From: Lachnospiraceae bacterium
GTDB lineage: Bacteria; Bacillota; Clostridia; Lachnospirales; Lachnospiraceae
Assembly: GCA_020860185.1 (NCBI GenBank)
Contig: JAJBUT010000212.1
Coordinates: 1 to 40,679, forward strand
Direction: 5' to 3'
DNA: 40,679 bases
The notes under the pieces are model-generated. The model was given only the letters and a program-made list of their open reading frames with translations. It made no database searches and had not been told where the DNA came from. The translations under genes and the position numbers were made by a program. Positions 1,552 to 36,041 of this stretch are shown piece by piece (position 1 is the stretch's first letter; the number at the start of each line of letters is the position of its first letter).

Positions 1552-1582
1552 ATTTTAGGCTATGTTCTTACTATACAGTCAA
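1552..1582 (-). promoter_or_regulatory. MerR-type promoter of SLC13 gene: TTGACT-19bp-TAAAAT with operator CTGTATAG-TAA-GAACATAG
   Basis: Read on the minus strand: ttgactgtatagtaagaacatagcctaaaat; closely resembles the promoter at 36011-36041. Confidence 0.75.
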
Positions 1583-1692
1583 TAAAAAAACAGCGATAAA
1601 AAGTGAAAAAACGGGCATTTTCGCTTAATGTCATTTCACTTTCCATCGCTGTCTTGTGCAAAATCACAAGGTTCATATTCAATTCTGTTCTG

Positions 1693-2193
1693 TTATGACT
1701 CACAAATGTCTTTTCTGACACTTATCTCATAAACAGTATCCGCATAATCCCTGAGACCGGCTCCCAGCACACGTCCCGTCAGAATGACATCCGTCTCCTC
1801 CGAACGGAGACGAAGCAGCGACAGCAGCTCCTCCTCCGATATGATGCCGTAATCCACCAGGCCCAGCACCTCATCCAGGATCAGCACGCTGCACTCTCCG
1901 GTCTGGAGCACCTTCCGGGCATAGTTCATACCGTTTTTCATGTTCATCTGCTCGTCAATCTGCCCCTGTTCATCCAGCTCCTCATAATTCCGACCGGACT
2001 TCTGAAAACGGAACACGCGGATCTCCGGTTCCAGACGCTTCAGAAAAGCGGACTCATCCTCGTTTTTCCGTTTCAGGAATTCAATGATAATGACGGAACC
2101 CAGAGCGCTCGCCTCATGTATGGCACAGCCCAGAGCAGCGGATGTCTTTCCTCTGCCATTTCCGTAATATACCTGTATCTTTCCCATGCTCAT
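1693..2193 (-). CDS. cobO: cob(I)yrinic acid a,c-diamide adenosyltransferase (CobO/BtuR family)
   Basis: IQVYYGNGRGKTSAALG P-loop, LILDEV and VILTGR motifs; SD GAGGAG. Confidence 0.85.
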   Translation of the reverse strand: MSMGKIQVYYGNGRGKTSAALGCAIHEASALGSVIIIEFLKRKNEDESAFLKRLEPEIRVFRFQKSGRNYEELDEQGQIDEQMNMKNGMNYARKVLQTGECSVLILDEVLGLVDYGIISEEELLSLLRLRSEETDVILTGRVLGAGLRDYADTVYEISVRKDICES

Positions 2194-2280
2194 GGTTTTC
2201 TCCTCTCAGATATATGCACGTTTCAAAGATAATCGTGCCTGATTGTAAGAGATTACCACATTTACTGTAAAAACACAAGC

Positions 2281-2913
2281 TTAATCCTCGGGAATCAGGT
2301 CGAGTTTATTGACAGAAACCTCATAGGCCACTCTCCGCTCCGTCTCCTCCTCGCTGATCTTTTTGACATATTCCCGGCTCTGAATACGTCCTTCCAGATA
2401 GATATGACTGCCGACCTCAAAGCCGGAAGCAAAACGGGCGTTTCTGCCCCAGCAGATACAGGGTATGTAATCGGACTTCCCATAGGAACGGTTGACCGCC
2501 AGCAGCACATCCGCGATCTCCCTTCCGAGCGGAGTTTTCCGGTAAACCGGCTCCTTACAGATAAATCCTTCCAGACAGATGAGGTTCGTATTCTCTCCGT
2601 CCTCTACCTCATCCAGGAATTCCAGTTCTCTCACAAAAACCGAGAGAACCAGCCGGTTTTTCCTCTCCTCATGTCGGTTGTAGGATCGGAACTGCCCGGT
2701 CACACGAACGATCTGTCCCATGTAATCCCGCTCCGTGTCGATCAGGCGTTCCGATATCATAAGCGGTATAAAATCGGCATTGCTGCTCAGCCGGTTCACC
2801 GCGATTTCAACCATATAAAAACCTTCTCCGTACACCTCATGACTGTAGCGGAAATCTGAAACGATCTCCCCAATCATAGACACCTGATTGTTTTCAAACA
2901 TTTTATCCGTCAT
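2281..2913 (-). CDS. ssb: Single-stranded DNA-binding protein, clostridial tandem-OB-fold type
   Basis: FRYSHEVYGEGFY, YRKTPLGREIADVLLAVNR, DYIPCICWGRNA and GRIQSREY motifs; start moved to ATG at 2913 (MTDKMFENN) after SD AAGGGAG. Confidence 0.9.
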   Translation of the reverse strand: MTDKMFENNQVSMIGEIVSDFRYSHEVYGEGFYMVEIAVNRLSSNADFIPLMISERLIDTERDYMGQIVRVTGQFRSYNRHEERKNRLVLSVFVRELEFLDEVEDGENTNLICLEGFICKEPVYRKTPLGREIADVLLAVNRSYGKSDYIPCICWGRNARFASGFEVGSHIYLEGRIQSREYVKKISEEETERRVAYEVSVNKLDLIPED

Positions 2914-3182
2914 TTCGTAAGCTCCCTTCTTCACATGTACGCGTGTTTTACAATCCCAAGACGCATTGCTTGCGCTCATCATAGCACAAAAAAGGCTCGA
3001 ATACACGTACTTTATGTCAATAACTGAATTTCGTTCAAATAATTTCTTGCCAAATTCTTTTTTTATGCTACAATAAGTGATGCTTTGTACCGGCAGCGAT
3101 CCGTCTGCCGGCTTTATAGTAAACGTCAAAAATATTTGCCGTCCATTATAAATATTGATTGAACAAACGGAAGGAGCATGCT

Positions 3183-4214
3183 ATGTCAGATGAAACAACG
3201 GCAGAATATTACCGGACACACGCGGATTCCATCCTCTATGCCAACGGCAATCTTGTTCTGGGGATATCCTCGGAGGAGAAGGTTCTGCAGCTGAGTGAAA
3301 ATGACTTTGTCGACCTGGCAGCGAACACGACGGATGCCGCCCGGTTTGAAAAAGACATCCTGATAAAAAAAGACGGTACCCTGGTGAGTCCGGTGCCGAT
3401 GGTTCGGAGCTGGGATCACATCATCGCCCTCGGAGGCGGGATGAACGGCTCTTATAAGAAGTTTTACGTCGGCCTGAGGGATGACGGCACACTGGTCGCC
3501 ACCGGTTCGAATGCCTGCGGGCAGGGCGACGTCTCAGACTGGAAGCACGTGACATCCGTATCGTGCGGCTACCGGCACACGGCTGCTCTATTGGAAAATG
3601 GCCGGGTTCTCGCGACTGGTTCGAACAAAAACGGTCAGTGCAACACGTCCGATTGGGAGGACGTCTCTTCGGTCTGCGCAGCTTTGGACTGCACCTTCGC
3701 CCTGAAAAAAGACGGCACCGTGCTGTCAGCCGGCGCGGCACGGTACGGCTGCGACACCTCAGGATGGAAAGAGATTGAAGAACTGATTGTTTCAGAGGGA
3801 ACGGTATCTGCCACCTGGAACGGAGGCGTTACGCTTGCCGGTCGGCGCAAGGACGGCACCGTTCTCACTACCGGCTTTAACGCGAACCCGAAACACGGCG
3901 GCAAACGCTGGAATACGGAAAACTGGGAAGACATCGTATCTGTATCATCGCACGGAGAACATCTGCTGGGGCTGAAAAAAGACCGGACCGTGGTCGCCGC
4001 CGGCCCGAACGACAAGGGTCAGTGCAATGTATCCGAATGGCGGGATATCATCGGCATTTACGGCGGATACGGCAGCGTCTCGGCCGGAATCCGGTCAGAC
4101 GGGCATGTCATCTACACCGCGCACCGCGTGGAACCCGGACGCGTGACCTACAAGATCATTCTGAGCAAGCCTGTGATATCCAGACAAAAGCTGTTTACCA
4201 CAGATGAATCATAA
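3183..4214 (+). CDS. RCC1/BLIP-II repeat beta-propeller protein
   Basis: Repeated units L-x-x-DG-T-V-x-A-x-G-x-N-x-x-GQC-[DN]-[VT]-S-x-W; SD AAGGAG before ATG 3183. Confidence 0.8.
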   Translation: MSDETTAEYYRTHADSILYANGNLVLGISSEEKVLQLSENDFVDLAANTTDAARFEKDILIKKDGTLVSPVPMVRSWDHIIALGGGMNGSYKKFYVGLRDDGTLVATGSNACGQGDVSDWKHVTSVSCGYRHTAALLENGRVLATGSNKNGQCNTSDWEDVSSVCAALDCTFALKKDGTVLSAGAARYGCDTSGWKEIEELIVSEGTVSATWNGGVTLAGRRKDGTVLTTGFNANPKHGGKRWNTENWEDIVSVSSHGEHLLGLKKDRTVVAAGPNDKGQCNVSEWRDIIGIYGGYGSVSAGIRSDGHVIYTAHRVEPGRVTYKIILSKPVISRQKLFTTDES

Positions 4215-4346
4215 CTGAACGAATAGCCGCAACTCCATTTATTTATCTGATGGGATGTTCACCGGAAAGCACTGCCGCTGACAGGAAAGAGGAAAATTCC
4301 GCAGATCAGTGCGATACACGAACAAGGCGGCGACATGGAGGCGAGT

Positions 4347-6182
4347 ATGAAAACAACAAGAGAAGACATACGCAACATCGCGATCATCGCGCATGTTGAC
4401 CACGGGAAAACCACCCTCGTAGACAACCTGCTGAAACAGTCCGGCGTTTTCCGGGAGAACCAGGTCGTCCGGGAGCGCGTGATGGATTCGAACGATATCG
4501 AGAGGGAGAGAGGTATTACCATCCTCTCCAAAAACACAGCAGTATTTTATAAAGACACAAAAATCAACATTGTGGACACTCCCGGACATGCCGACTTCGG
4601 CGGAGAGGTAGAGCGCGTCCTGAAGATGGTGGACGGCGTGATTCTGGTCGTTGACGCCTTTGAGGGCGCCATGCCACAGACGAAATTCGTGCTGATGAAA
4701 GCGCTGGATCTGAATCTGCCGGTCATCGTCTGTATCAATAAAATCGACCGGCCGGAAGCACGGCCGGATGAAGTCATCGACGAAGTACTTGAGCTTTTCA
4801 TGGACCTCGACGCCTCAGATGAGCAGCTGGACTGCCCCTTCGTCTATGCATCTGCCAAATACGGCTATGCCACCCTGCATCCGGAGGACGAGCCAAAGGA
4901 TATGAAACCTCTGTTCGAGACCATTTTAAACTATATACCGGCTCCCACCGGAGACCCGGACGCCAACACACAGGTGCTGGTCAGCACGATCGACTACAAT
5001 GAATATGTCGGCCGAATCGCGGTCGGCAAGGTAGACAACGGCTGCATCCGGGTCAACCAGGATGCCGTCATCGTCAACGCGCACGATCCCGAAAAGCAGC
5101 GGAAAGTCCGGATCAGCAAATTATATGAATTCGACGGACTGGAGAAGGTCGATGTAAAGGATGCCCGGATCGGCTCGATCGTCGCCATCTCCGGCATCGC
5201 GGACATCCACATCGGGGATACCATCTGCGCACCGGAACATCCGGAGCCCATCCCCTTCCAGAAAATATCCGAGCCGACGATCGCGATGAACTTTCTCGTA
5301 AACGACAGCCCGCTCGCCGGACAGGAGGGCAAATACATCACCTCCCGCCATATCCGCGACCGGCTGTTTAAGGAACTGAACACCGATGTCTCTCTCCGCG
5401 TGGAGGAGACAGACAGCGCCGACTGTTTCAAAGTATCCGGACGGGGCGAGCTTCACCTCTCCGTACTGATTGAAAACATGCGCCGCGAGGGCTATGAGTT
5501 CGCCGTATCCAAGGCGGAGGTTCTCTACCACACCGACGAGAACGGCAAACGGACCGAACCGATGGAACTGGTCTATGTCGATGTGCCGGAGGAGTTTACC
5601 GGCGTCATCATCGAAAAGCTGAGCCAGCGAAAGGCGGAGCTGCAGAACATGGGCGGCATCAGCGGCGGCTACACCCGCCTCACCTTCCGCATGCCGGCGC
5701 GCGGCCTCATCGGCTACCGCGGCGACTTTCTGACGGATACGAAGGGCAACGGCATCATGAATACCATCTTCGACGGCTACGATCTCTACAAGGGAGATAT
5801 CCAGTACCGGAAGCTCGGCTCCCTCATCGCCTATGAGCCAGGCGAGTCCGTGGCCTACGGCCTGTTCTCCGCCCAGGATCGCGGCGCCCTGTTTATCGGT
5901 CCGGGCGAGCGGGTTTACTCCGGCATGGTCGTCGGACAGTGCTCCCGCTCCGAGGACATCGAGCTGAATGTCTGTAAGAAAAAGCACCTGACCAACACGC
6001 GCTCCTCCTCCGCGGACGAAGCTTTAACACTGACGCCGCCGCGAATCCTGAGCCTGGAACAGGCGCTTGATTTCATCGACACAGACGAGCTTCTGGAGGT
6101 CACGCCGGAGAGCCTGCGCATCCGCAAGAAAATCCTTGATCCGACCCTGCGGAAACGTGCCGCCATGAAGAAAAATCAATAA
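4347..6182 (+). CDS. typA: Translational GTPase TypA/BipA
   Basis: [47 protein letters not shown] and C-terminal [11 protein letters not shown]; start at ATG 4347 after GGAGG. Confidence 0.97.
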
Positions 6183-6188
6183 TCTAAA

Positions 6189-6224
6189 AAACCGACCGTC
6201 CCGCATACGCGGAACGGTCGGTTT
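6189..6224. terminator. Probable bidirectional intrinsic terminator between typA and dctQ
   Basis: Stem AAACCGACCGT(C)CCGC / GCGG(A)ACGGTCGGTTT between convergent genes, A/T-rich flanks. Confidence 0.8.
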
Positions 6225-6234
6225 ACTTTGTCTG

Positions 6235-6744: not shown

Positions 6745-6781
6745 AAAAACAACTCCTTTCTGGATCGCTTCATAAACACAA

Positions 6782-9332: not shown

Positions 9333-9515
9333 AAGCTCTCTCTCCTTTCTGTAAAACAGCCATTTCTGTTCTTTTTTTGAATAAAAAATACTCCCTGTTC
9401 AGACTTTTCTCAAAAGCCTGATTATGAAATCAGCAACCTCCTTTCTTACTATACCGTACGTCCTGTATCTGTATGATTTACATACGGCATGTATTCGTAC
9501 CTCTACTCATTCAAA

Positions 9516-9546
9516 ATCATAGTCTGTATAGTTACTATACATTCAA
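9516..9546 (-). promoter_or_regulatory. MerR-type promoter of TRAP operon: TTGAAT-19bp-TATGAT with operator ATGTATAG-TAA-CTATACAG
   Basis: Minus strand ttgaatgtatagtaactatacagactatgat. Confidence 0.8.
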
Positions 9547-11272: not shown

Positions 11273-11350
11273 AATAAACTCCTCCTTCATAAATACATGG
11301 CAGATTTATACAAAAAAACTGCCGAAATCCAATTTTCTCTACTCCTTTTC

Positions 11351-11382
11351 AGTATAACACTGTATAGCTGATATACAGATAT
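11351..11382 (-). promoter_or_regulatory. lpdC promoter: extended -10 (TGTTATACT) with operator CTGTATAT-CAG-CTATACAG; poor -35
   Basis: Dyad at 11360-11378; -10 at 11351-11356 on the minus strand. Confidence 0.7.
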
Positions 11383-11462: not shown

Positions 11463-11492
11463 TTGACTGTATAGCGCTATACAGATTATAAT
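11463..11492 (+). promoter_or_regulatory. lpdB/ubiX promoter: TTGACT-18bp-TATAAT with perfect palindrome CTGTATAGCGCTATACAG
   Basis: Direct read; palindrome at 11467-11484. Confidence 0.85.
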
Positions 11493-12711: not shown

Positions 12712-12742
12712 ACTATACGATATATAGCGGCTATACACGCAA
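12712..12742 (-). promoter_or_regulatory. MerR-type promoter of lpdD: TTGCGT-19bp-TATAGT with operator GTGTATAG-CCG-CTATATAT
   Basis: Minus strand ttgcgtgtatagccgctatatatcgtatagt. Confidence 0.75.
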
Positions 12743-14041: not shown

Positions 14042-14044
14042 ACT

Positions 14045-21356: not shown

Positions 21357-22328
21357 ATGCAGCAAATATCCTTTGATTCGATCAACCGGAAATTATCTAT
21401 TTCGGAAATGGCACAGATTCATGACATCAGCCGTCAAACCCTGATCTATTATGACAAGATCGGTCTGTTCCGACCGGCCATCATCGACGACGTAAACGGT
21501 TACCGCTATTACAGCACACTTCAGATCCCGCTGCTCAGAGAGATTTGTTTTTTGCGTTCCATCGGCATGTCCCTCGAGGATATCCGGAAACACAACGAGT
21601 ACAACACCTCCACCTCCACGATCGGACTTCTGGAATCTCAGAGGGACAAACTGACCAGACAGATGGAGACATTGCAGGAACAGATCCGTCAGATTGACAA
21701 GCGCGTGAATGTCTATCGCGATGCGAATGATTACGACAACGAAGACTATAAACCGACGATCACACATTTCCCGGACCGCTGGGTGCTCTACCACGAGTGG
21801 GAAGCGGACGACATGACGCGGCACGGCTATCATTTCTCTCTGATGCGGGTATGGAACGACGCCGAACGATACGATATTCTCCCCTCCAGACGATGGGGCA
21901 CACTGATCTTTAAAGATGAGGTCGAACGTGGAACCCCCTTGCATAATTGCGGCGCCTGTTGTATCATAGACGAAGATAAAATGCCCGATGTGCCGGGAAT
22001 GTATCTCTTAAAAGAGGGGGATTATGTCTGTATGCCGAAATACGGCATGTCCTTTAATGTAGAGCCTCTCGACAAACTGGTAAACTGGATCAGGGAAAAC
22101 GACTATGAGATCATCGGTGATATCTACGACGAATGTCTGCTTGACACCATTTTCTATGATGACGACCATGAGCTGGATTTCGGAGAGCTGCAGATTCCGA
22201 TACGCAAAAAAGAGGTATCTTCGATGAATTCCTTCTCGCAGATCGTGCGTGATCAATCCGACGAAAGGAGTCCCCATGGCTTATTACATCAACAAGAAAA
22301 ACAAAAAACCGGCAGAAGAACTGCCTGA
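21357..22328 (+). CDS. MerR-family transcriptional regulator with GyrI-like ligand-binding domain (BltR/BmrR type)
   Basis: ISEMA-x4-ISRQTLIYYDKIGLF-x-P...NGYRYY, LRSIGMSLEDI, coiled coil, GDY-x-C and ELQIPI; start may be 21321 or 21357. Confidence 0.92.
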   Translation: MQQISFDSINRKLSISEMAQIHDISRQTLIYYDKIGLFRPAIIDDVNGYRYYSTLQIPLLREICFLRSIGMSLEDIRKHNEYNTSTSTIGLLESQRDKLTRQMETLQEQIRQIDKRVNVYRDANDYDNEDYKPTITHFPDRWVLYHEWEADDMTRHGYHFSLMRVWNDAERYDILPSRRWGTLIFKDEVERGTPLHNCGACCIIDEDKMPDVPGMYLLKEGDYVCMPKYGMSFNVEPLDKLVNWIRENDYEIIGDIYDECLLDTIFYDDDHELDFGELQIPIRKKEVSSMNSFSQIVRDQSDERSPHGLLHQQEKQKTGRRTA

Positions 22329-22571: not shown

Positions 22572-23540
22572 TTATTTCCCTGATTTTCTCTTTCCGAACA
22601 TATCGATCGCCACGACCGCGACAAGCACCGCGCCGATGACAATGTTCTGTACCGAGGAGGTCACGCCCATGATGTTCAGTCCGGTACTGATGACACAGAT
22701 AACAAACGCGCCGACCACTGTCTTTGCGATCTTGCCTTCACCGCCGGAAAGACTGGTTCCGCCGATCGCCGCCGCCGCAATCGCGAGAATATTGTATCCG
22801 CCGTCGGCAATGTTCGGGCTTCCGGTCCGCAGCCGGGATGCCAGCACCAGTCCGGCAATCGCTGCCGCAAGTCCGTTTAATGTAAAGATCAGAATGTTAT
22901 ATCTGTCTACATTCACTCCGGAAAGTCTGGCGGTCTGCTCGTTGCTGCCGATCGCGTATGTATAGCGGCCGAGCTTCGTATTCCGGATCAGATAAAAGCA
23001 GATCACGAAGAAGATGATCGCCACAATAAACTGGGAAGGAATGATACCGATGGTCTTCGAACCCCAGAAAGTAAACTGTACCGCCGCGTTTTCATTGTCC
23101 GCGATACGGATGGACGTCTCGCGTGTGATGACCAGAGCCAGACCGCTGGCTGCATACATCATACCCGCCGTCATAATGAAGAACGGCACCTTCAGCTTCG
23201 CGATGCATACACCGTTGACAAATCCGCAGGCGAGACCGATCGCTATGCCGACCAGGGATGCCGGAATCGGCGTCATGCCTGCCTGCATGCAGATAGAAGC
23301 CGCGCAGCCCACCAGCGCTGCGATCGAACCGATGGAGAGATCGATCTTACCGCTGATCATGACAAAGGTCATGCCGCAGCCGAACAGAATGTAGACCGCT
23401 CCCGTCCGCAGCAGACTCGTCAGGTTGCTCAGCGAGAAGAATCCGCTCCCGGCGACCGAGAAAAGTACGACAAGAGCCACCAAGATAATATACACGCCGA
23501 ATTTGTCGTATATCTGTTTCCCCTTTGATACGTTGTTCAT
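22572..23540 (-). CDS. CUT2 (ribose-type) sugar ABC transporter permease
   Basis: GMTFVMISGKIDLSIGS, GRYTYAIGSNEQTARLSG and IGGTSLSGGEG. Confidence 0.92.
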   Translation of the reverse strand: MNNVSKGKQIYDKFGVYIILVALVVLFSVAGSGFFSLSNLTSLLRTGAVYILFGCGMTFVMISGKIDLSIGSIAALVGCAASICMQAGMTPIPASLVGIAIGLACGFVNGVCIAKLKVPFFIMTAGMMYAASGLALVITRETSIRIADNENAAVQFTFWGSKTIGIIPSQFIVAIIFFVICFYLIRNTKLGRYTYAIGSNEQTARLSGVNVDRYNILIFTLNGLAAAIAGLVLASRLRTGSPNIADGGYNILAIAAAAIGGTSLSGGEGKIAKTVVGAFVICVISTGLNIMGVTSSVQNIVIGAVLVAVVAIDMFGKRKSGK

Positions 23541-23565
23541 AAAATCCTCCTACTATCGCCGGAAA

Positions 23566-25083
23566 CTAAATATCCAGCATCAATTTCAACATCTTTTCTT
23601 TCAGGTTGTCCTCTCCCTCAGAGAACTCGCCGACCTTTTTGCCCTCGCGCATCACGATGATGCGGTTGCACAGTCCGATCAGTTCATCCTCCTCCGAGGA
23701 AATCACAATGACTCCGATATGCTGCTTCACGAGATCCTGAATGAGCTGATAAAAATCCGCTCGGGCTCCTACATCCACGCCCCGGGTCGGCTCATCCAGC
23801 AGCAGCAGCTTTGAGTTCGTCATCAGCCACTTCGCCAGGCAGACCTTCTGCTGGTTTCCGCCGCTCAGATTCTCAATTCTCTGCTCCATGCCTGTCGTTT
23901 TTATTTTCAAACTGTCAATCAGTTTATTTACGCCATCTTTCTCCTGACCGTTTCGGATATGAAGTCCTTTCCCGAGAGACAACATACTCGGCAGGCTCAT
24001 ATTCTCGCGAATCGGGCGCACCGCCAGGATACCTTCGACCTTCCGGTCCTCGCTAACATAACCTATGCCCTGACGCACCGCGTCCACCGGGCTTTTGACA
24101 TCCAGTTTTCTGCCTTCAAAAACAAACTCACCCTCATCCAGATCATAACAACCGAAAATCGTCTTCGCAATCTCGGTTCTCCCCGCTCCTGCCAGACCGG
24201 CAAAGCCGAGGATCTCACCCTCTTTTAACTGAAAACTCACATTCTCATATAAACCCTTACTGGTCACGTTCTTCGCCTCGAAGATCACCTCTCCCTCGTG
24301 ATGAAACTTCTCCGGAAACTGATTCGTATTCTCGGAACCGACGATACCGGCGAGCAGCCTCTGATTATTCACATTCGCAATGTCGTCGGAAAAGATCAGT
24401 TTTCCGTCCCGCAGTAATGTGATCCGGTCACAGATCTGATAAACCTCCGACATACGATGCGTGATATACACCATACCGACGCCCTTTTCCTTCAGACGGC
24501 CGATCAGAGCAAACAGAATCTCTGTCTCCTGCATCGTCAGGGAGGATGTCGGCTCATCAAAGATGATGACGTTGGAATTCAGATTCAGCGCACGCGTGAT
24601 CTCGATCATCTGCTGCGTCGCGACCGGCAGGTCGCCGGCTCTGGCGTCCAGATCAAAATCAACGCCCACCTCATCCATAACCTCTTTCGCGCGTTTGCGC
24701 ATCGCCTTCCAGTCGTAGATACCCCTGTTCACGATCTCATTCGCGATGAAGATATTCTCCAGCACGCTCAGGTGCGGAAGGATATTCAGCTCCTGAAACA
24801 CCATGGCAATGCCGTCCAGCTGAGCGTCATGTACCGTTCCCTTCAGCGGGATCACACGGCCGTTGTGCGCGATCGTTCCGCTGTCCGGCAGGTATACACC
24901 CGCAAGAACCTTCATCAGGGTGGATTTCCCGGCACCGTTCGCTCCCATCAGCGCATGAACCTCCCCCGCGCGGAGATCGAAATCCACATCATGCAGCACC
25001 TGTGTCCCGGCGAAAGATTTGCAGATGTCCGTCATCTTCAGTATTTCTTTCCCGACCTGCTCCGGTCTTTTTTCATTTCCCAT
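23566..25083 (-). CDS. CUT2 sugar ABC transporter ATP-binding protein (RbsA/MglA-like, two NBDs)
   Basis: GANGAGKST, FDEPT, EDRK, LSGGNQQK and LDEPTRGVDVGA. Confidence 0.95.
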   Translation of the reverse strand: MGNEKRPEQVGKEILKMTDICKSFAGTQVLHDVDFDLRAGEVHALMGANGAGKSTLMKVLAGVYLPDSGTIAHNGRVIPLKGTVHDAQLDGIAMVFQELNILPHLSVLENIFIANEIVNRGIYDWKAMRKRAKEVMDEVGVDFDLDARAGDLPVATQQMIEITRALNLNSNVIIFDEPTSSLTMQETEILFALIGRLKEKGVGMVYITHRMSEVYQICDRITLLRDGKLIFSDDIANVNNQRLLAGIVGSENTNQFPEKFHHEGEVIFEAKNVTSKGLYENVSFQLKEGEILGFAGLAGAGRTEIAKTIFGCYDLDEGEFVFEGRKLDVKSPVDAVRQGIGYVSEDRKVEGILAVRPIRENMSLPSMLSLGKGLHIRNGQEKDGVNKLIDSLKIKTTGMEQRIENLSGGNQQKVCLAKWLMTNSKLLLLDEPTRGVDVGARADFYQLIQDLVKQHIGVIVISSEEDELIGLCNRIIVMREGKKVGEFSEGEDNLKEKMLKLMLDI

Positions 25084-25103
25084 TAAATCCAGCCTTTCTG
25101 AAC

Positions 25104-25129
25104 ACCGGCCGGCACGAAGGCCGGCCGGT
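25104..25129 (-). other. GC-rich hairpin between SBP and ATPase genes (probable mRNA stabiliser)
   Basis: ACCGGCCGGC / GCCGGCCGGT perfect stem without U-tract. Confidence 0.55.
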
Positions 25130-25159
25130 AAAATCCATGCTCAGTTAAAACAAACCGAT

Positions 25160-26341
25160 TTACAGAGCGTCAAACAGTTCATTACCCTTGTCGATGAACT
25201 CCCACATATAATCAGATACGGACTCTACATCGGTACCCATGGTCCACTCAGCCAGTTCCTCGCCGTGAGGCAGGTACTCGTCAATATTCTCGCTGGTAAC
25301 AATAGTGTCCGGTGTAAAGGTATACAGACTGTATACATCATCGTCATAGTTCGGCTGATACTCCCACTCGCTCGAATCCGTGCCGTTGATCAGATCGTAA
25401 GCCTGATATACCGCGTAATAGCCCTGAAGGATAGACCAGTCGTATGCGGATGCGTACAGCTTGCCCTCGTCGATGGACTGCAGTGCCAGGAGGTTTCCGT
25501 CAATGCCGGCCACGAGAACACCGTCCTCGCCGACCTCAATGCCGTTCTCCTCAAGTGCGGTGACCGCGCCCACTGCCATCAGGTCGTTGCAGCAGAGAAC
25601 GATGTCGATATCGCTGTGCGCCTGGATCAGATCGGACATGGTGGTTGTCGCGGTATCCTGGTCATAGCTGGCGCTCTGGGAATCGAGAACCGTCACATTA
25701 TCATACTCAGCGATCGCGCGCTCAAATCCGGCTGTCCGCTCGATGGAGGAGCTTGCCGCGTCCACACCGCGCAGGATGATAACATTGCCTTCGCCGCCGG
25801 CCGCGTCAATGACTGTCTTCGCCAGCTCATAAGCCATCTCCTCGTGGTCTACACCGATGTAGTTCGGCATATAGTCGTCAATCTCATCGCCCCACACATT
25901 CGTGATCTCGGTATCCACCGTCACAAACGGGATACCCGCGTCATGCGCCGCGTCAACCGCACCGGATACACCGTCGGAATCATTCGCCGTCAGAATCAGG
26001 GCGTCCACACCGGCAGAGATCATGTTCTCACACTTCGTAACCTGTCCGTCTACATCAGACTCAGTCGTCGTGTTGTCCACTCTCACCTCAACGCCGAGCT
26101 CCTGTCCCGCCAGAACCGCGCCGTACGCGATATCCTGGAAATGAGCATTCGTCGCGGTCTTAACAACGATACCGATCGTAAGGTCGGAATCAGCCGTGGA
26201 AGTCTCAGCCGCGCTACTGCTCTCGTCCGCTGCCGAACCGTCGTTCGTGCTGTCTGAGCTCGAGCTGCCGCAGGCCGCCAGGCTCATTGCCATCGCGCCA
26301 ATCACCGCGATGGAGAGAATTTTTGTCATTCTTTTCTTCAT
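25160..26341 (-). CDS. Sugar ABC transporter substrate-binding lipoprotein (RbsB-like)
   Basis: Lipobox LAAC, NAHF, GIPFVTVD, ERTAGF, NDLMAVGA and GIDG; ATG 26341 after AAGGAGG. Confidence 0.92.
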   Translation of the reverse strand: MKKRMTKILSIAVIGAMAMSLAACGSSSSDSTNDGSAADESSSAAETSTADSDLTIGIVVKTATNAHFQDIAYGAVLAGQELGVEVRVDNTTTESDVDGQVTKCENMISAGVDALILTANDSDGVSGAVDAAHDAGIPFVTVDTEITNVWGDEIDDYMPNYIGVDHEEMAYELAKTVIDAAGGEGNVIILRGVDAASSSIERTAGFERAIAEYDNVTVLDSQSASYDQDTATTTMSDLIQAHSDIDIVLCCNDLMAVGAVTALEENGIEVGEDGVLVAGIDGNLLALQSIDEGKLYASAYDWSILQGYYAVYQAYDLINGTDSSEWEYQPNYDDDVYSLYTFTPDTIVTSENIDEYLPHGEELAEWTMGTDVESVSDYMWEFIDKGNELFDAL

Positions 26342-26677
26342 AAATATCCTCCTTTTATGAATGGCATTATTTATACAGATTGCCATCTTTGATGGCAATA
26401 GTATATCATTTTTGATTTTTTCCGGTTATTCAACCGAATTTACTAATTATGAATAAATGAAATGATTGTACCCCGGAAAAACACGGTTTGAATTCATCCG
26501 GTTTTTTATCGGTTTTTGCCCGGTATACCAGATGTATTTTTCTGATATTAAAAAAAGCTACTGATATTTCAGTAACTTTTCACAAAATCTTTCTGATAAT
26601 TTTATTTGATTTATACAAAGGCAATCCATATTTATACCGTTTCCACTTACATATAACTTTTTCTTTACAGAAACTAT

Positions 26678-27373
26678 TCAATATCCATCTGGGGAAAAGC
26701 CCTGTTCACACATGTCAATCGTCCGGCGGATCAGCGCAACCGTGCTCTCCACCGGATAACCGAACAGCAGTCCGGTCACCGCAAGCTCCTCCTCGCCCAG
26801 GCAGTTGTGAAGCTCAATCGGACACTCCTCCTCGTGGCCGAACCAGGACATCTCCCGCTGAAAAAAATCCCGCATTTTCTCTCTGTCCAGATGTACCTCA
26901 CAGGAATCATAGACAGCCAGAATCTCTTCGAGATTAAAATAATCTCCCAGGGTGCCCTTCCTGCTGATATAGAGCATAAACTCGTACTCCTGTATGTGAT
27001 ACGGATAGCAGTAAAATGCATCTCCGACCTCGGCCAGAATCCGCATGTAATCATCGCCGGACTCCGGATAGATCGTCGCAGCCAGCTTCTTTCCGTTCTG
27101 CACCGACTCATTCATATAGGAGACAACCGGAATCGGGCCATAATTGTTGCTGCAGCAAATCAGGTTATACCAGCTCAGCCACGGACTCTCATACTCCGCA
27201 CGCACCGGAAAAAAGATCTGCTTGCAGACCACCGGTCCCGCGCCTGACCGCTGAAACTCATAGGTGAGGGTGACCGTCACCTCATCCCCCTCCTGTTCAC
27301 GATACAGCGAAAAAGTCAGCGGCTCTCCCCCCATATCATACTCCTGTTCAAAAATCAGATCCTTTACTGCCAT
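26678..27373 (-). CDS. Hypothetical protein (231 aa)
   Basis: Acidic globular-looking ORF overlapping the GntR stop by 10 nt; C-terminal GLLFGYP; no family recognised. Confidence 0.7.
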   Translation of the reverse strand: MAVKDLIFEQEYDMGGEPLTFSLYREQEGDEVTVTLTYEFQRSGAGPVVCKQIFFPVRAEYESPWLSWYNLICCSNNYGPIPVVSYMNESVQNGKKLAATIYPESGDDYMRILAEVGDAFYCYPYHIQEYEFMLYISRKGTLGDYFNLEEILAVYDSCEVHLDREKMRDFFQREMSWFGHEEECPIELHNCLGEEELAVTGLLFGYPVESTVALIRRTIDMCEQGFSPDGY

Positions 27374-28053
27374 ATGTTGTACCTGCCGGTCACTAATTTA
27401 CTGATATAATACTTTTTGATGTACTGACTGTGCTCCCGCTCTGCGGCGATCGCGCCGTCCAGGTCACGGGCGAGAATCGCCTCGTAAATCTTATGATGCT
27501 GCTTCGTCGTCTCCTTGCCATGCTCCAGATCCTCGAAGGATGTGACGTCAAATCTGCGCTTCTGGTTCAGCAGCAGCTCGAACATCTTATCCAGCCATCG
27601 GTTGTGAACCGAATGGATGATAAAGCTGTGAAACTTCACATCCCAGTCCATCCGCTCAATCAGGTCTCCGACCTCCGACTCCTTCTCCGTCTCCTCCATG
27701 ATCTGGGTCAGCGTCCGGTCCGAGACCGCGTCATAGTTCTTAAGAGACACCTGCAGCGCATAGACCTGCAGCACCTCCAGCAGATCATAGACGCCCAGGA
27801 TATCCTCCAGCGTGTAAACCGGTACGACTATCCCCTTCCCCGGCTCCTCCGTCAGCAGCTCCTCACGCACCAGCTGGCGCAGCGCGTAACGCACCGGAGA
27901 ACGGCTTACATGGTAGGTCTCAGAGAGCTGACGCTCTACAAGGACAGTGCCCGGTTCATATTCATTGCGCAGGATCGCCTCCCGAAGCTGGTGATATACA
28001 GCCATCTCCTTCGTCATACCTGCGGTGCTATTCACATCTCCTGTTTTTCCCAT
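27364..28053 (-). CDS. GntR-family regulator (FCD subfamily)
   Basis: LREAIL-x4-PG-x2-L-x-E-x2-L, VSRSPVR, D-x2-FH and QHHKIYEAI. Confidence 0.92.
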   Translation of the reverse strand: MGKTGDVNSTAGMTKEMAVYHQLREAILRNEYEPGTVLVERQLSETYHVSRSPVRYALRQLVREELLTEEPGKGIVVPVYTLEDILGVYDLLEVLQVYALQVSLKNYDAVSDRTLTQIMEETEKESEVGDLIERMDWDVKFHSFIIHSVHNRWLDKMFELLLNQKRRFDVTSFEDLEHGKETTKQHHKIYEAILARDLDGAIAAEREHSQYIKKYYISKLVTGRYNIWQ

Positions 28054-30361: not shown

Positions 30362-30367
30362 TTATCC

Positions 30368-31108: not shown

Positions 31109-31138
31109 CGTGCCCATGCCTCTGACAGCATGGGCACG
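31109..31138 (-). terminator. Stem-loop after bthL (terminator with weak U-tract)
   Basis: CGTGCCCATGC / GCATGGGCACG perfect 11-bp stem, 14 nt past the stop codon. Confidence 0.7.
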
Positions 31139-31152
31139 CAAACCGAATCCTT

Positions 31153-31974
31153 TTAGAACTCGATATAATCAAGATTCAGTGATTCACCGGCAATCTCGAC
31201 ATCAATATCCTTTTTATTGCCGGCCGCATCAATGCTGATCACATACTTGCCGTCGTCAAGTCCGTCGAACTTGAAGTCGCCAAAGAAGTTCGTCTTCTGC
31301 GAATCGACCAGCACGCCGTCCTTCCTGAGCTCGATGGTGGCGTTCTCGTAGCAGTCTCTGTTCACAAGAATACCGCCAGCCACAAAATTCTTGGTGAACT
31401 TATAGAGGTTCTTGTAATATACATGTGGATTCAGACCTAACTCCGGTCTGTAAACCTCAAGCTTCTCCGTCTCGATCATCGCCTGCATCTCGAGCGGATC
31501 AAGATGATATGCCTGGAATGTCTTTGTCGGGCAGGAGTGAACACACCTCGGTACACCGGGCTTCCAATCCGGATCATCAAGCAAATGAGCACACATGGTA
31601 CACTTCTGTGCAACATCTTTTTCATCGTTGTAATAAACCGCACCGTAAGGACACATGGAAGCCACTTCCTTATGACCTCTTGCCTTATCCATATCGATCA
31701 GGACAATGCCGTCGTCTCTTCTGGTCGCATATCCGGCCGCTACAAGAGGACATTTCTCACAATGCTGGCAGGGCATTGAGAGATATACATAATCATTACG
31801 CGCGTATCTGCCGCGCTCTCTGCGCATTACATTCACCCAGCGATGTCCGTGACGCGGCTGAGACTCCGTATAACCGGGCCATTCATTTCCAACGTGCTCA
31901 TCTTTGCAGGACATAAGGCAGTTGTTGCAGTCATGACACCATCTGATATCGTGTACTAAATACCACTGTTTCAT
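31153..31974 (-). CDS. bthL: Pyrogallol hydroxytransferase (transhydroxylase) small Fe-S subunit
   Basis: C-x2-CNNC-x3-C-x-DEH-x2-NEWPGYT, HRW, RRERG, DGIVLID, CPYG, AQKCTMCAHLLDD and TNFFG-x-FKFD with C-terminal beta-barrel; matches the remembered P. acidigallici beta subunit along its length. Confidence 0.92.
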   Translation of the reverse strand: MKQWYLVHDIRWCHDCNNCLMSCKDEHVGNEWPGYTESQPRHGHRWVNVMRRERGRYARNDYVYLSMPCQHCEKCPLVAAGYATRRDDGIVLIDMDKARGHKEVASMCPYGAVYYNDEKDVAQKCTMCAHLLDDPDWKPGVPRCVHSCPTKTFQAYHLDPLEMQAMIETEKLEVYRPELGLNPHVYYKNLYKFTKNFVAGGILVNRDCYENATIELRKDGVLVDSQKTNFFGDFKFDGLDDGKYVISIDAAGNKKDIDVEIAGESLNLDYIEF

Positions 31975-32007
31975 CTCTTATTCTCCTTTCCTGGAGTATC
32001 TGCGGGA

Positions 32008-34608
32008 TTAATAAATCTCGTAGATACCTCCGTCCCATTTTTCTACTTCAACCTGAGCACTGTTCGGCGCCATACCACACGCATACTTGGACATGTAGCG
32101 ATCCGGTGTCAGGATATTCACGCACCCGCCGCGGTCTGCGGAGCATCCCGGTTTGCCGAGCGGAGCATACTCCGCGCAGGACTCATAGGAGTGAACGGTA
32201 CCGGGCTGTACGCGCTCGCCCACCTGTGCACAGAGAATTACGGATCCTCTGTCGTTGAACGCGCGAACCAGGTCGCCGTCCTTGATGCCGCGGGCTTTCG
32301 CGTCAACGGAATTCATACGAATGATCCAGTAATACCAGCCGTCAACCAGTACACGGTGATCCTTGATATCCAGCATGAAGGAATCCTTCGCGTCGCCCAT
32401 CGTATGGAAGGAGAATCTGGGATGAGGTGAAAGCATGCCGAGAGGATACTTCTTCGCAACCTCCGCGTGCCAACTCTCCCATGCCGGTACATACTTATGC
32501 ATGGCCGGACGATATTCATCAATATAACCCTGCTCCTCGAAACGAGATAAGCTGGTAGAGATAAACTCAATCTTTCCTGTCGTCGTCTGCAGGCCCTTTA
32601 AGCCGACAGACTGGTTCGGAGCGGGACCCCAGTCCGGAGTATCGCGCTCACGGTTCTCGGCGAACCAGCGGAATGCAACAGTCTTCTTGCGGTTCGGGTT
32701 GATCGGAACAACCATGTAACCCTTCTTGAAGAACTCATCAAACGTCATAACCTGCGGACAGTCTGTCGCGTTGTAATACTGTCTTACCCAGTCAAGCTCA
32801 TCCTTGCCCTCAGAGAAAATTTCATAAATGCCGAGCTTCTTGGACATCAGCGCGTAAATCTCATAGTCAGACATGGACTCGCCCAGCGGCTCGATACACT
32901 TTGCCTGCAGGGAGATCACGCGGTTGTTTGCTGTCTGATAGGTATCCGGAATGTAGCCGGAGCAGTTACCGAACTCGGAGATGTCCCAGCGCTCATAGTT
33001 CGTGCAGGCCGGAAGGATAACGTCCGCGAACATAACCTCGCCCTCGTTCCAGATCGACTGGCTCACTACAAACTCAAGCGTATCGGAGTGATACATCTTT
33101 GCGTAGCGGTTCGTCGCCGTCATCGTGCCGATATGCGGTCCGCCGTACTTCCAGTACATCTTGATCTTGCCGTAGCCCGGAGCCGGATACTGATACGGAT
33201 GCATCTGCGCCTCAATGGAAGCACCGCAGAATCCCTTGCCATACCACTCGAACTTGCCGTTCATGATACACTCCGGAATCTTCAGACGCGGAATGTGCTG
33301 ACCGGCCTCCCAGTTTACCTTGACCGGAGCCGGGAAGGTCGTGCGGCCGTCGAACATACGCCATGCGAACTTATAGCCCGCAGCAGAGTTGCAGCAGTCG
33401 CCGGAAATACCGCCGTCCGCGTAGCCCGGGAAGAAGAAATCATAGTCTACCGGCACGCCCTGTGTGGTGGACCAGATGTTGGAACCCGGCTTGCCCATGC
33501 CCTGCATTGTCGCAAGAGCGATCATACCGCGGGTCCACTCAATACCGTGCGTCGCACGACATGCGCCGCCCCAGCCGCCGAGTCCGCCGGCTGCAAGGTA
33601 TGTATTCTTCTTCGCCCACTCACGCGCCAGCGCACGAATCTCACAGGCAGGAACACCGGACTCTTTCTCAGCCCACTCACAGGTCTTCGGGTAATTATCC
33701 TCACCCTTGCCTAATACATACTCAGCCCACTCCTCAAAACCGTAGGCATGAGTCGCTACATACTCTTTGTCATATGTACCCTCTGTCAGCCAGGTGTATG
33801 CGATCGCGAAAGAAATCGCATGATCCGTACCAACCTTCGGGGACATCCACTTCATGCCCCACATATTCGCGGAATGGTTGAAGAAAGGATCAATAAATAC
33901 CATCTGAACACCGAGCTCATCAAGCCAGCGACGTCTGATATGTGACTCGTACGCAGCGTACAGTCCGCTGTTTACCTCCGGATCAGAAGACCAGAACACG
34001 ATCAGATCCGCATATTTCAGACCATCCTCAAGCAGATCGTACTGCTCCGGGTTTCCGAGTCTCCAGGAAAATCCCCACATATGCATGCCGCCCCAATGCC
34101 AGCCTTCCCAGCTGTCCGGGTTGTGATCCGCATAGGTGAATCCCATGAGGTTCATGAAACGGAAATAGGTGGAGTGACGGTAACCTACATTACCCCATAA
34201 GTGGTGAGAAGACGGTGTGGACATGATGGATGCCGGGCCGCTCTCTCTTTTGATTCGATTGACTTCGTTCGCGACAATGTCGGTTGCCTCGTCCCAGCTG
34301 ATTCTCTCATATCCTGAAATACCGCGGTTCTGGATATTTCTCTCACCGTTCGGGTCGAAGTCAACACGCTTCATCGGATACAGATTGCGGCGATCAGAAT
34401 AAATCATGGACTTCTGGCCGGCCGTGAACGGCTGAATCGTCGTATACCTGGGCGCCTTGAACACTCTGCCTCTCGCCTCGATTGTCCAGCCCTCCGGATC
34501 GGTCTCATCAAAGTCCATCGGTGTAATGCGGATAATCTTTCCATCCTTAACATATACGAACACCGGACCGCCGGTACTGGAGTTTGTTAAACGAATTTCG
34601 CCTTGCAT
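32008..34608 (-). CDS. athL: Pyrogallol hydroxytransferase (pyrogallol-phloroglucinol transhydroxylase) large Mo-bis-MGD subunit
   Basis: 866 aa from ATG 34608 (SD AAAGGAGG). RLTNSSTGGPVFVYVKDGKIIR, STPSSHH-x-WGNVGYRHSTYFRF, HNPDSWEGWHWGGMHMWGFSWRLGNPEQYDLLEDG, FPGYA, NCSGYIPD and terminal YEIY match the remembered P. acidigallici alpha subunit; no Tat signal. Confidence 0.95.
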   Translation of the reverse strand: MQGEIRLTNSSTGGPVFVYVKDGKIIRITPMDFDETDPEGWTIEARGRVFKAPRYTTIQPFTAGQKSMIYSDRRNLYPMKRVDFDPNGERNIQNRGISGYERISWDEATDIVANEVNRIKRESGPASIMSTPSSHHLWGNVGYRHSTYFRFMNLMGFTYADHNPDSWEGWHWGGMHMWGFSWRLGNPEQYDLLEDGLKYADLIVFWSSDPEVNSGLYAAYESHIRRRWLDELGVQMVFIDPFFNHSANMWGMKWMSPKVGTDHAISFAIAYTWLTEGTYDKEYVATHAYGFEEWAEYVLGKGEDNYPKTCEWAEKESGVPACEIRALAREWAKKNTYLAAGGLGGWGGACRATHGIEWTRGMIALATMQGMGKPGSNIWSTTQGVPVDYDFFFPGYADGGISGDCCNSAAGYKFAWRMFDGRTTFPAPVKVNWEAGQHIPRLKIPECIMNGKFEWYGKGFCGASIEAQMHPYQYPAPGYGKIKMYWKYGGPHIGTMTATNRYAKMYHSDTLEFVVSQSIWNEGEVMFADVILPACTNYERWDISEFGNCSGYIPDTYQTANNRVISLQAKCIEPLGESMSDYEIYALMSKKLGIYEIFSEGKDELDWVRQYYNATDCPQVMTFDEFFKKGYMVVPINPNRKKTVAFRWFAENRERDTPDWGPAPNQSVGLKGLQTTTGKIEFISTSLSRFEEQGYIDEYRPAMHKYVPAWESWHAEVAKKYPLGMLSPHPRFSFHTMGDAKDSFMLDIKDHRVLVDGWYYWIIRMNSVDAKARGIKDGDLVRAFNDRGSVILCAQVGERVQPGTVHSYESCAEYAPLGKPGCSADRGGCVNILTPDRYMSKYACGMAPNSAQVEVEKWDGGIYEIY

Positions 34609-34642
34609 GGCTAAACCTCCTTTAAATATGTGATAAATTATT

Positions 34643-34708
34643 GTATCCGCGAAACCTGCCGCAGCGCCAGAGTAGAGGATGCGCCGCCCCGGGCGGTTCC
34701 ACAGATAC
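34643..34708 (-). other. Long hairpin in athL 5' leader
   Basis: GTATCTGTGGAACC pairs with GGTTTCGCGGATAC (14 bp including G-U), GCC/GGC, GCGGCGC/GCGCTGC, loop ATCCTCTACTCTG. Confidence 0.7.
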
Positions 34709-34759
34709 CATTCGCTACAAAAAGGAACAAAAAAACTCTGCTGCCCCCTTCTATAACGC

Positions 34760-34790
34760 ATTGTAAGCTGTATTGTCACCATACAGTCAA
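34760..34790 (-). promoter_or_regulatory. MerR-type promoter of athL-bthL: TTGACT-19bp-TACAAT with operator CTGTATGG-TGA-CAATACAG
   Basis: Minus strand ttgactgtatggtgacaatacagcttacaat. Confidence 0.82.
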
Positions 34791-34819
34791 GATGAAAATT
34801 CAGGAAATCAGAAAAGTTT

Positions 34820-35737
34820 CTAAAAATCTCTCTTGGCGTGAAGATTGGAGTATTTCTGTGCATATATGTAAAAATCATTCAGCGCCGGGTTTTTGTTTTT
34901 GTTCTTGCGGACGAGCTGCATGGAAAGATACTTCTGCGGGACGTCCTCCTCGATGGGAATAAAACGGAGGTTCATATTCGATGTCACCTCATCCTCCTCA
35001 AACACCAGGGATACGCCCTCGCCCATCTCGATCGCCAGCAGCAGCTCCTCAAAATCCTCAAACTCAGCCGACACCTTCGGCACAAAATCAAAAGCCGCAC
35101 ATATATTATGAAGGTAATCATCCTCCGGCTTCAGTTTCATCGGAAGATAGCGCAGAAACGGGCTGTCCTTAAAATCGGAAAGCTTCACATCCCTCTTGCG
35201 GAACAGCGGATGGCTCTTGTGGATCACAATACCGACCCGGGAATAAAATAAGGTAGCTTTCTCGACACCCTGCACCATCTTCACATCGTGGTCGGCGATC
35301 AGGATTGCGTCGTAATAATCGTTCATCAGCCCCTCGACCAGCTTCCGCTGCGTGCAGCGCTCCTTCATGATCTGGATCTCCGGACGATCCTCGCGAAACC
35401 CGGACAGCACCTGTGAGATATAGCTGTTGGACTTGATGTGCTCCTGACAGCCGATCGAGATGCCGCCGCTGAACTTCTTGACGGAGTTCTTCGCGCGGGC
35501 CAGCGCATTCTGCCACTCGGTTACCATCTGCGAGAGCGTCTCCGCCAGCATCTGACCCTGGATCGTCAGCCGCACCCCCTTCGTGTTACGGTCAAACAGC
35601 GGCAGACCGAGCTCCTCCTCCAGAGAAGCGATCTGCCTGCTGATATTCGACTGGGAGATAAACAGTCCCTTCGCCGCCTTCGTGAAACTCAGGTGCGTCG
35701 CCACCTCGAGAAAACACTTTATCTGTAAATCGGTCAT
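34820..35737 (-). CDS. LysR-family transcriptional regulator
   Basis: LSFTKAA-x2-LFISQSNISRQI-x2-LEEELG-x2-LF-x-R...LT-x2-G; 305 aa. Confidence 0.95.
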   Translation of the reverse strand: MTDLQIKCFLEVATHLSFTKAAKGLFISQSNISRQIASLEEELGLPLFDRNTKGVRLTIQGQMLAETLSQMVTEWQNALARAKNSVKKFSGGISIGCQEHIKSNSYISQVLSGFREDRPEIQIMKERCTQRKLVEGLMNDYYDAILIADHDVKMVQGVEKATLFYSRVGIVIHKSHPLFRKRDVKLSDFKDSPFLRYLPMKLKPEDDYLHNICAAFDFVPKVSAEFEDFEELLLAIEMGEGVSLVFEEDEVTSNMNLRFIPIEEDVPQKYLSMQLVRKNKNKNPALNDFYIYAQKYSNLHAKRDF

Positions 35738-35811
35738 AATACAATCAGTCTCCTTAGTTCATGGGATATTTTGCATAAAAACATGAAAAAAACGAAATCT
35801 ATTTTATCAAC

Positions 35812-35840
35812 ATTATACTGTATTCTAAGAATACAGTCAA
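35812..35840 (-). promoter_or_regulatory. lysR promoter: TTGACT-17bp-TATAAT containing the perfect dyad CTGTATTC-TTA-GAATACAG
   Basis: Minus strand ttgactgtattcttagaatacagtataat. Confidence 0.82.
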
Positions 35841-36010
35841 TCTTTTCTTAAAAAAACAGATTCCAAAAACTGAACATATTATGGCATAATTATATCAGCA
35901 TACTCAATTCCCACTTATCCAAAAACCCCCGTTACTTATTTCGGTTCTGCATGAATGTCACAATTTTTCTTTCCATATTATATAAATTTTATATATTTTT
36001 AACATTTCGG

Positions 36011-36041
36011 TTGACTGTATAGTAGGAATACACTGTAAAAT
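36011..36041 (+). promoter_or_regulatory. MerR-type promoter of sodium:solute symporter: TTGACT-19bp-TAAAAT with operator CTGTATAG-TAG-GAATACAC
   Basis: Direct read ttgactgtatagtaggaatacactgtaaaat. Confidence 0.8.

Follow-up and report, generated by a model that had tools for sequence, protein, structure and literature searches.

The 40,679-nucleotide stretch of Lachnospiraceae DNA analysed here (the window; contig C189 of a 2.52-Mb genome that is 91% complete) encodes a UbiD decarboxylase, UbiX, an LpdD-like protein, TRAP, SLC13 and SSS transporters and molybdenum-cofactor genes, together with athL, the gene for the large subunit of a pyrogallol hydroxytransferase. Eight of its promoters share a palindrome (dyad) that overlaps the −35 box, and the 5′ leader of athL carries a predicted hairpin loop complementary to the predicted 5′ ends of other mRNAs of the same regulon. 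Comparison across related genomes makes it likely that these features belong to one scheme, in which a MerR-family protein reads the dyad and the athL leader loop pairs with partner mRNAs and, as predicted, shields them. The MerR regulon would be a familiar regulator type with an uncommon role in catabolism. Greater novelty lies in the proposed leader-loop pairing, which was overlooked by an earlier annotation made from the window alone (the sequence-only reading).

Under the proposed mechanism, the MerR protein would bind the palindrome and, probably in response to a phenolic ligand, untwist the promoter. The untwisted promoters would turn on the genes for gallate uptake, for decarboxylation and for pyrogallol transhydroxylation. 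The loop in the athL leader would then pair with the predicted 5′ ends of four regulon mRNAs and shield them from RNase J, giving a feed-forward loop in which transporter and decarboxylase mRNAs last only while the mRNA for the pyrogallol-consuming enzyme is present.

A conserved dyad in eight promoters

The sequence-only reading named a −35/−10 hexamer pair for each of eight promoters, and all are found at the positions and on the strands that it gave. They precede the SLC13 transporter gene (1552–1582, minus strand; TTGACT-19-TAAAAT, dyad 1560–1578), the TRAP operon dctM-P-Q (9516–9546, minus; TTGAAT-19-TATGAT, dyad 9524–9542), lpdC (11351–11382, minus; dyad 11360–11378), ubiX (11463–11492, plus; dyad 11467–11484), lpdD (12712–12742, minus; TTGCGT-19-TATAGT, dyad 12720–12738), athL (34760–34790, minus; TTGACT-19-TACAAT, dyad 34768–34786, immediately past the lysR stop codon), lysR (35810–35840, minus; TTGACT, dyad 35818–35836) and the SSS transporter gene (36011–36041, plus; TTGACT-19-TAAAAT, dyad 36015–36033). 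In all eight, the −35 box starts 14 bases away from the palindrome centre. The quoted consensus 19-mer occurs five times in the window with at most three mismatches, against 0.10 occurrences expected, and none of 100 shuffles reached five; the SLC13 and lysR dyads are each four mismatches from this consensus.

Conservation was assessed with 92 rows of dyads gathered by half-site score only (using a matrix from the eight window sites), outside coding matches and no more than 450 nt from a homologous gene. The set used for geometry excludes this genome and holds 72 sites, drawn from 20 other genomes, whose dyad centre is 3 nt; close kin are included and are not independent. TTG begins four bases upstream of the dyad in 51 of these 72 sites, placing the dyad at positions 5–23 from TTG. 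Among the 51, TAnnnT stands at a spacing of 19 bp in 47, 17 bp in 4, 20 bp in 3 and 21 bp in 2, with double counting possible. The athL and SSS promoters have the TTG start in 38 of 38 sites and TAnnnT at 19 bp in 36 of 38. Thus, the claimed geometry of a dyad on the −35 box with a long spacer stands, given that both the register and the 19/20-bp spacers are kept across the 20 other genomes.

A 31-bp promoter model built from the 51 other-genome sites was then scanned over this genome. Its six best matches genome-wide are the SSS (41.5 bits), athL, SLC13 (36.8 bits), lysR, TRAP and lpdD promoters, spanning 30.6–41.5 bits, and the next match scores 16.3; the ubiX and lpdC promoters are unable to fit this fixed-spacer model. 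The sequence-only reading had listed frequent occurrence of the motif before unrelated genes as evidence that would count against it; the scan yields no further promoter above 16.3 bits, and the regulon is confined to the window contig within this assembly. The plain promoter attributed to guaB is also present (TTGACA-17-TATAAT). A further expectation, that the motif would lead to the phloroglucinol genes, was not borne out: the cluster on contig C54 lacks a dyad promoter, and its genes are rejected as regulon members. A dyad-like site at C128:209 was likewise rejected as an operator because it resembles the 5′ hairpin of a transcript.

The lysR, lpdC and ubiX promoters called for amended descriptions. 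The lysR promoter had been given as TTGACT-17-TATAAT, and this −10 box is indeed present, but it overlaps a TAATGT at 19 bp whose register is better kept. Specifically, a 19-bp TAnnnT occurs in 5 of 5 close genomes and the 17-bp TATAAT in 4 of 5, and the remoter lysR promoters that bear the dyad have a 19-bp spacer. A 19-bp spacer with a second, overlapping −10 box at 17 bp is the better description. The dyad and extended −10 box described for lpdC are both found, but the promoter belongs to a 20-bp class, as TAnnnT is in the 20-bp register in 14 of 14 lpdC sites and in the 19-bp register in none of the 14. At ubiX, TTGACT-18-TATAAT and a perfect dyad are present as reported, but the centre is 2 nt rather than the 3 nt of the proposed motif. 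The 18-bp form recurs in G067 upstream of ubiX and merR2, the gene for a second MerR paralogue, and the 19-bp form occupies this position in G062, G065, G066, G068 and G069. The ubiX promoter of the window is likely a one-base deletion variant of the merR2–ubiX promoter of relatives, and merR2 itself was apparently lost in the lineage of the window while its promoter stayed.

A MerR-family protein as the candidate reader

The window encodes three regulators: a MerR-family protein (21357–22328, plus strand), a GntR/FCD protein within the athL operon (27364–28053, minus) and a LysR-type protein that is itself a regulon member (34820–35737, minus). On sequence evidence, the MerR protein very probably binds the dyad and activates the eight promoters. 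It comprises a winged helix-turn-helix, a coiled coil and a GyrI-like ligand domain. Its sequence matches Mta, BmrR, BrlR, EcmrR and the Pfam family MerR_1, and its predicted fold (pLDDT 80) matches BmrR, EcmrR, BrlR and GyrI-like domains (Foldseek; E value for BmrR 7e-15), at 18% sequence identity to BmrR. The available portion of PMC9909328 describes a palindrome with a 19–20-bp spacer as the defining trait of MerR-family promoters. Furthermore, the BmrR operator is centred at −24, with its −35 box at −37 to −32 (PMC7722741, accessible part), and the dyad offset here equals that of the BmrR operator relative to the −35 box.

Gene linkage also argues for the MerR protein. A scan of species genomes for MerR homologues yielded 21 loci, and in all 16 that were not already in the set and were examined, homologues of window-cluster genes adjoin the MerR homologue (lpdC in seven). 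In Eubacterium oxidoreducens DSM 3217, for example, the MerR homologue adjoins athL, SSS and lysR. A second MerR paralogue, with 34–41% identity, is present in many or most related loci and has the same recognition helix. All 18 aligned proteins have this helix, RQTLIYYD, unchanged, and it is also kept in G135; the other three MerR proteins of this genome differ from it. The dyad is found at merR genes too: merR2 promoters carry it with a 19-bp spacer in eight genomes and an 18-bp spacer in one, and the first paralogue has a 19-bp dyad promoter in G064 and a dyad over its presumed start in four loci.

The proposal that one MerR factor coordinates the pathway holds in part. A MerR reader is supported by the spacer, fold, linkage and merR-promoter dyads, but a single factor is true of the window lineage only, because most relatives have two MerR paralogues with identical helices. 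The accompanying suggestion of a catabolic role, rather than the efflux or metal roles of this family, agrees with the targets, which are uptake and catabolic genes. The inducer is likely to be a phenolic compound, for which gallate or pyrogallol would be the most likely choice.

Some observations weigh against the MerR protein. No dyad was found in the upstream region of the window merR gene. Among seven athL-positive relatives in the genus, a merR orthologue is present in six, and gntR and lysR orthologues are present in all seven. Moreover, G021 keeps three dyad promoters along with gntR and lysR, and searches there for either MerR gave no match at E ≤ 1e-30. The G021 assembly is 92% complete, and a stop within athL together with a split lysR suggests that the cluster there may be decaying.

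This distribution gives some weight to an alternative in which the cluster LysR or GntR/FCD protein reads the dyad as a repressor or classical activator, making the long spacer incidental. LysR operators have a T-N11-A core, which the dyad fits; the promoter of lysR itself bears the dyad in several genomes; and athL and gntR are co-transcribed. However, neither LysR nor GntR needs the fixed 19/20-bp spacer that is held in 47 of the 51 sites, and lysR lacks a dyad scoring at least 9 in 9 of 23 rows. Two incomplete assemblies bear on the same question. In G065, where two merR genes are present and dyad promoters precede lpdC, merR2, TRAP and SLC13, searches for gntR, lysR and athL orthologues gave no match; in G004, which encodes a related MerR and has an ABC transporter preceded by a 19-bp dyad promoter, searches for gntR and lysR orthologues gave no match. 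In addition, G135 has a gntR that is only 39% identical, whereas both of its MerR proteins keep the helix and its dyad is unchanged. We consider a LysR or GntR/FCD reader improbable, and retain the MerR protein as the reader of the dyad.

Other features near these regulators were also noted. A TTGTATACAA box before merR was considered as a GntR site and rejected, as it is missing in G023 and four other relatives. A sugar-type ABC transporter (22572–26398) adjoins merR or gntR in many related loci, and has a dyad promoter in none of six rows. In G019 and G018 (L063, L064), the gene downstream of a distant SSS transporter encodes a MerR of 32% identity that has the same recognition helix, accompanied by a weak dyad outside the −35 register.

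The athL leader loop and its probable partner mRNAs

The athL gene (32008–34608, minus strand) encodes a protein that aligns over its length with the solved pyrogallol hydroxytransferase, or transhydroxylase (PDB 4v4c, 1622 bits, residues 4–866). Its start codon is at 34608, downstream of a ribosome-binding site, and the longer open reading frame from 34878 is not the true one. The 5′ leader (34609–34753) is predicted to form a 5′-terminal hairpin (approximately 34718–34753) and a long hairpin (approximately 34643–34708) that presents the loop AUCCUCUACUCUG; the leader as a whole has a z score of −1.9, and 7 of 200 shuffles are equally stable. The terminal loop (34668–34680) contains a seed, CCUCUACUC, at 34670–34678. 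Across 16 aligned athL leaders, the only invariant parts are CCTCTACT and the ribosome-binding site. The seed is predicted to sit in a hairpin loop closed by 19–35 pairs in 17 of 18 leaders (the exception is G135), with a mean unpaired probability of 0.79–1.0 in 18 of 19. Only 0–6 of 200 flank shuffles per leader match the seed hairpin. The arms are 28% identical, and two-sided changes affect 5 of 36 predicted hairpin pairs in six close leaders. The leader has no match to Rfam covariance models, either at the gathering score or at E ≤ 5, and no terminator or separate gene was found in it.

Complements of the seed occur as short tags at the predicted 5′ ends of regulon transcripts. GAGTAGAGG is located at predicted position +4 of the SSS transcript (36051–36059, plus strand), which is the universal partner of the athL loop, and at predicted +2 of the TRAP transcript (9500–9508, minus). 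GAGTAGAG, an 8-nt complement of the loop, is located at predicted +1 of the lpdC transcript (11337–11344, minus) and at about +11 of the predicted SLC13 transcript (1528–1535, minus). This 8-mer occurs 21 times in the genome, and each of the five occurrences within the window lies in a regulon leader. The tag is not present in the ubiX, lpdD, lysR or merR leaders, and the 8-mer is found upstream of control genes in 0 of 106 rows. SSS leaders have the motif or a covarying variant 8–14 nt past the −10 box in 21 of 21 cases; it begins 8–10 nt past the box in 18 of the 21 (start sites are predicted).

Natural covariation supports pairing. The comparison used 19 genomes with both partners; G013, G067, M132 and three metagenome loci were excluded because a partner was absent, the dyad was weak or the locus was nearly a duplicate. 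Core pairs are intact in 171 of 171 instances over these genomes, and flanking positions pair in 4–13 of the 19. At core positions 1–3, 57 of 57 pairs are kept despite six departures from the consensus, all of which are compensatory or G–U and four of which are two-sided. The departures occur in G021 (G–C to A–U), M133 (G–C to A–U and A–U to U–A) and G135 (U–G, G–U and G–U), and in each of these genomes both partners differ from the consensus. In G135, the athL and SSS sites form only six Watson–Crick pairs, but 16–17 contiguous pairs when G–U is counted. The G135 loop is the best of the 19 loops for its own target, and 1 of 2,000 shuffles is as stable. Because the SSS and athL genes are transcribed divergently in the window and stand in tandem in 6 of the 19 genomes, pairing must be possible in trans. 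Taken on these sequence patterns, there is a high probability that the athL leader loop pairs with the predicted 5′ ends of SSS, TRAP, lpdC and SLC13 mRNAs in the cell.

Several points count against this conclusion or temper the figures. Core positions 4–9 served as the anchor for the alignment, leaving positions 1–3 alone as an unselected test, and the six departures there stem from only three lineages, with kin that are not independent. A permutation of cognate versus other partners gives modest P values of 0.006 and 0.013, which are overstated by kinship. The TRAP, lpdC and SLC13 tags are found mainly in the close clade and sporadically beyond it; the SLC13 GAGTAGAG, for example, is kept in G026 and lost in G017 and G063. 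Finally, G065 retains GAGTAGAG before TRAP, and the athL orthologue search there gave no match.

The G065 site would be easier to understand if GAGTAGAGG / CCTCTACTC were bound as double-stranded DNA by a second protein (LysR or GntR), in either orientation and with no RNA duplex. Just downstream of the −10 box, where GAGTAGAGG lies, is a usual place for a repressor, and a shift in protein specificity would alter all DNA sites jointly. However, in every case the copy at athL runs antisense to the other copies and lies inside a hairpin loop with unrelated arms, and the site is 9 bp long without repeat or symmetry. The two G135 sites, considered as DNA, have three differing positions and are matched only if G–U pairs are allowed; this favours RNA pairing because RNA pairing predicts such a match and a shared DNA site does not. 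We judge the DNA-site explanation to be very improbable and continue with RNA pairing.

If pairing occurs, its outcome is slightly more likely to be stabilization of the transporter and decarboxylase mRNAs by the athL leader than anything else, by analogy with known systems. Stabilization was chosen because the tag is tied to the predicted 5′ end rather than to the ribosome-binding site, the athL leader has no terminator and RNase J is present. Tags lie anywhere from 9 to 78 nt from the ribosome-binding site but at a nearly constant distance from the −10 box, and the genome encodes RNase J (TIGR00649 match, 608 bits, contig C190). In silico blocking of the target site in 24 leaders caused no consistent change in the accessibility of the ribosome-binding site, and a translational switch in the target mRNAs was rejected on this basis. 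Two features speak against the proposed scheme: the SLC13 tag, at about +11, is too deep for a simple exonuclease block, and predicted folds show some cis pairing of the SSS target sites.

Less likely are other outcomes of pairing, namely an action on the athL leader by the 5′ ends of the transporter mRNAs, or repression or co-localization of the messages. Every piece of pairing evidence is blind to direction, the SSS tag in this genome lies only about 10 nt from its ribosome-binding site, and the position of the SLC13 tag is again unhelpful to a simple block. In contrast, a single loop facing several 5′ ends would be the usual pattern of a regulator and its targets, and the athL hairpin ends about 20 nt before an unpaired ribosome-binding site in a leader where no terminator was found. 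If stabilization is taken further, the chances are about even that the athL mRNA, or a stable leader fragment, is a multi-target riboregulator, capping transporter and decarboxylase mRNAs that belong to the same MerR regulon at their 5′ ends. Equally balanced is the associated idea that new promoters enter the circuit by acquiring the dyad plus a 9-nt 5′ tag. If this is true, pyrogallol would be imported or made only while the enzyme that removes it is expressed, and the mRNA-to-many-mRNA network would be traceable through natural covariation across genera.

Additional sequences related to the seed or the leaders were observed. The athL paralogues (53–69% identical) were rejected, as the seed is in none of them and they have no in-register dyad promoter. 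A second CTCTACTC occurs in the athL2–athS2 3′ untranslated region (UTR) (G000 C178:5969–5976, L014; also L039, L037 and L068), before a terminator-like hairpin, in 4 of 5 genomes; it may reflect inertia (the flanks are conserved and cis pairing is possible) or a second donor of the type seen with Listeria hly. CTCTACTC is also located in the predicted leader loop of a 111-amino-acid open reading frame between spoIVA and a nucleoside phosphorylase gene (G000 C54:14316–14700), 5 kb from the phloroglucinol cluster. The TRAP leader contains a conserved AGAAAGGAGG (window approximately 9430–9440, minus strand) about 100 nt before the dctM start, and no conserved start codon follows it in G000, G009, G017 and G026. 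We presume that this element could be a ribosome-stalling stabilizer.

Related systems, distribution and gene content

The window MerR protein resembles BmrR, BltR, EcmrR and BrlR in domain layout and fold, and its promoters share with theirs the 19–20-bp spacer, the palindrome over the last −35 bases and the same centre offset (PMC7722741 and PMC9909328, in the parts available). The recognition helix and operator may also be similar to those of BltR. Those proteins target efflux pumps, whereas the predicted targets here are uptake and catabolic genes. The window regulon also differs in its eight promoters with 18-bp, 20-bp and dual 17/19-bp variants, and in the two paralogues with one helix that are found in most relatives. 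LiuR is one MerR protein with metabolic targets. Others are NmlR and Rv3334, which appear in a table in the available part of PMC9909328. The regulon would extend BmrR-type distortion activators from efflux to catabolism, and its natural 17-, 18-, 19- and 20-bp variants probe the spacer rule.

The predicted pairing has a counterpart in the Listeria hly 3′ UTR, which pairs in trans with the functionally linked prsA2 mRNA at its 5′ end in a Firmicute that encodes RNase J (PMC8722363). Here, however, the donor would be the loop of a 5′ leader hairpin with up to four partners in one regulon, and different genera retain the pair, natural compensatory changes included. RoxS–yflS and FasX–ska similarly combine a C/U-rich single-stranded seed with a G-rich extreme 5′ end, and yflS is a transporter mRNA, as are several partners here (PMC5419742, accessible sections). 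According to the same sections, RoxS and FasX are free-standing small RNAs (sRNAs), whereas the athL leader shows no terminator, separate gene or Rfam match. The case would be a rare phylogenetically supported example of mRNA–mRNA pairing in Firmicutes, with a 5′ leader as donor and several partners. It also suggests a search recipe, in which the invariant loops of variable leader hairpins are compared with 5′ ends inside one regulon.

The enzymes fit the anaerobic gallate–pyrogallol–phloroglucinol pathway of E. oxidoreducens and Pelobacter acidigallici, as outlined in the consulted part of PMC10470551: the same enzymes are represented here by AthL, an LpdC (UbiD-type gallate/protocatechuate decarboxylase) that matches AroY-type decarboxylases, and apparent phloroglucinol genes on contig C54. 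Four such genes appear to be present on C54 (SDR, dehydrogenase, cyclase and BKACE), although the family search confirmed BKACE alone and the other three were read from sequence. The available text of PMC10470551 names no regulator for the upper pathway. Our literature search, subscription papers and supplements aside, found no MerR regulator, RNA regulator or promoter motif for the gallate/pyrogallol upper pathway. Our analysis would therefore name a regulator, an operator and a likely inducer class for the anaerobic breakdown of tannin products in Lachnospiraceae-type bacteria, among them E. oxidoreducens DSM 3217, which is in culture, with a possible use as a gallate or pyrogallol biosensor.

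The combination of dyad and seed was found only in the family of the window. An athL orthologue is present in 4 of 400 sampled genomes of the family (at least 84%) and in 1 of 399 genomes of the class. In this sole class match, G1152 from another family, neither the dyad nor the seed was found before athL. The SSS query gave no match in 400 genomes of the order.

Further observations concern neighbouring or related genes. In most related loci, two proteins without a Pfam match, of 231 and 115 amino acids (window 26678–27373 and 39553–39900), accompany the athL/gntR and moaC blocks. This genome also has an athL paralogue with 63% identity and several remoter molybdoenzymes (C178, C19, C144 and C13), all outside the regulon. 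In G005 and G013 (L025:5350–10479; L028), an extra molybdopterin oxidoreductase operon is divergent from lpdC, with a dyad region common to both. Rfam matches include a Moco riboswitch upstream of mobAB–moeA in G135 (L159:17250–17385) and a Clostridiales-1 RNA on C128 (L013:12964–13116). Finally, at C128:200–330 (G000, L013) and at G009 C7:3290–3420 and approximately 3577 (L040), a dyad-like hairpin 4–5 nt past a TATAAT opens a conserved non-coding stretch. This stretch has no Rfam match and holds a CU-rich tract resembling an anti-ribosome-site sequence, making it a candidate sRNA.

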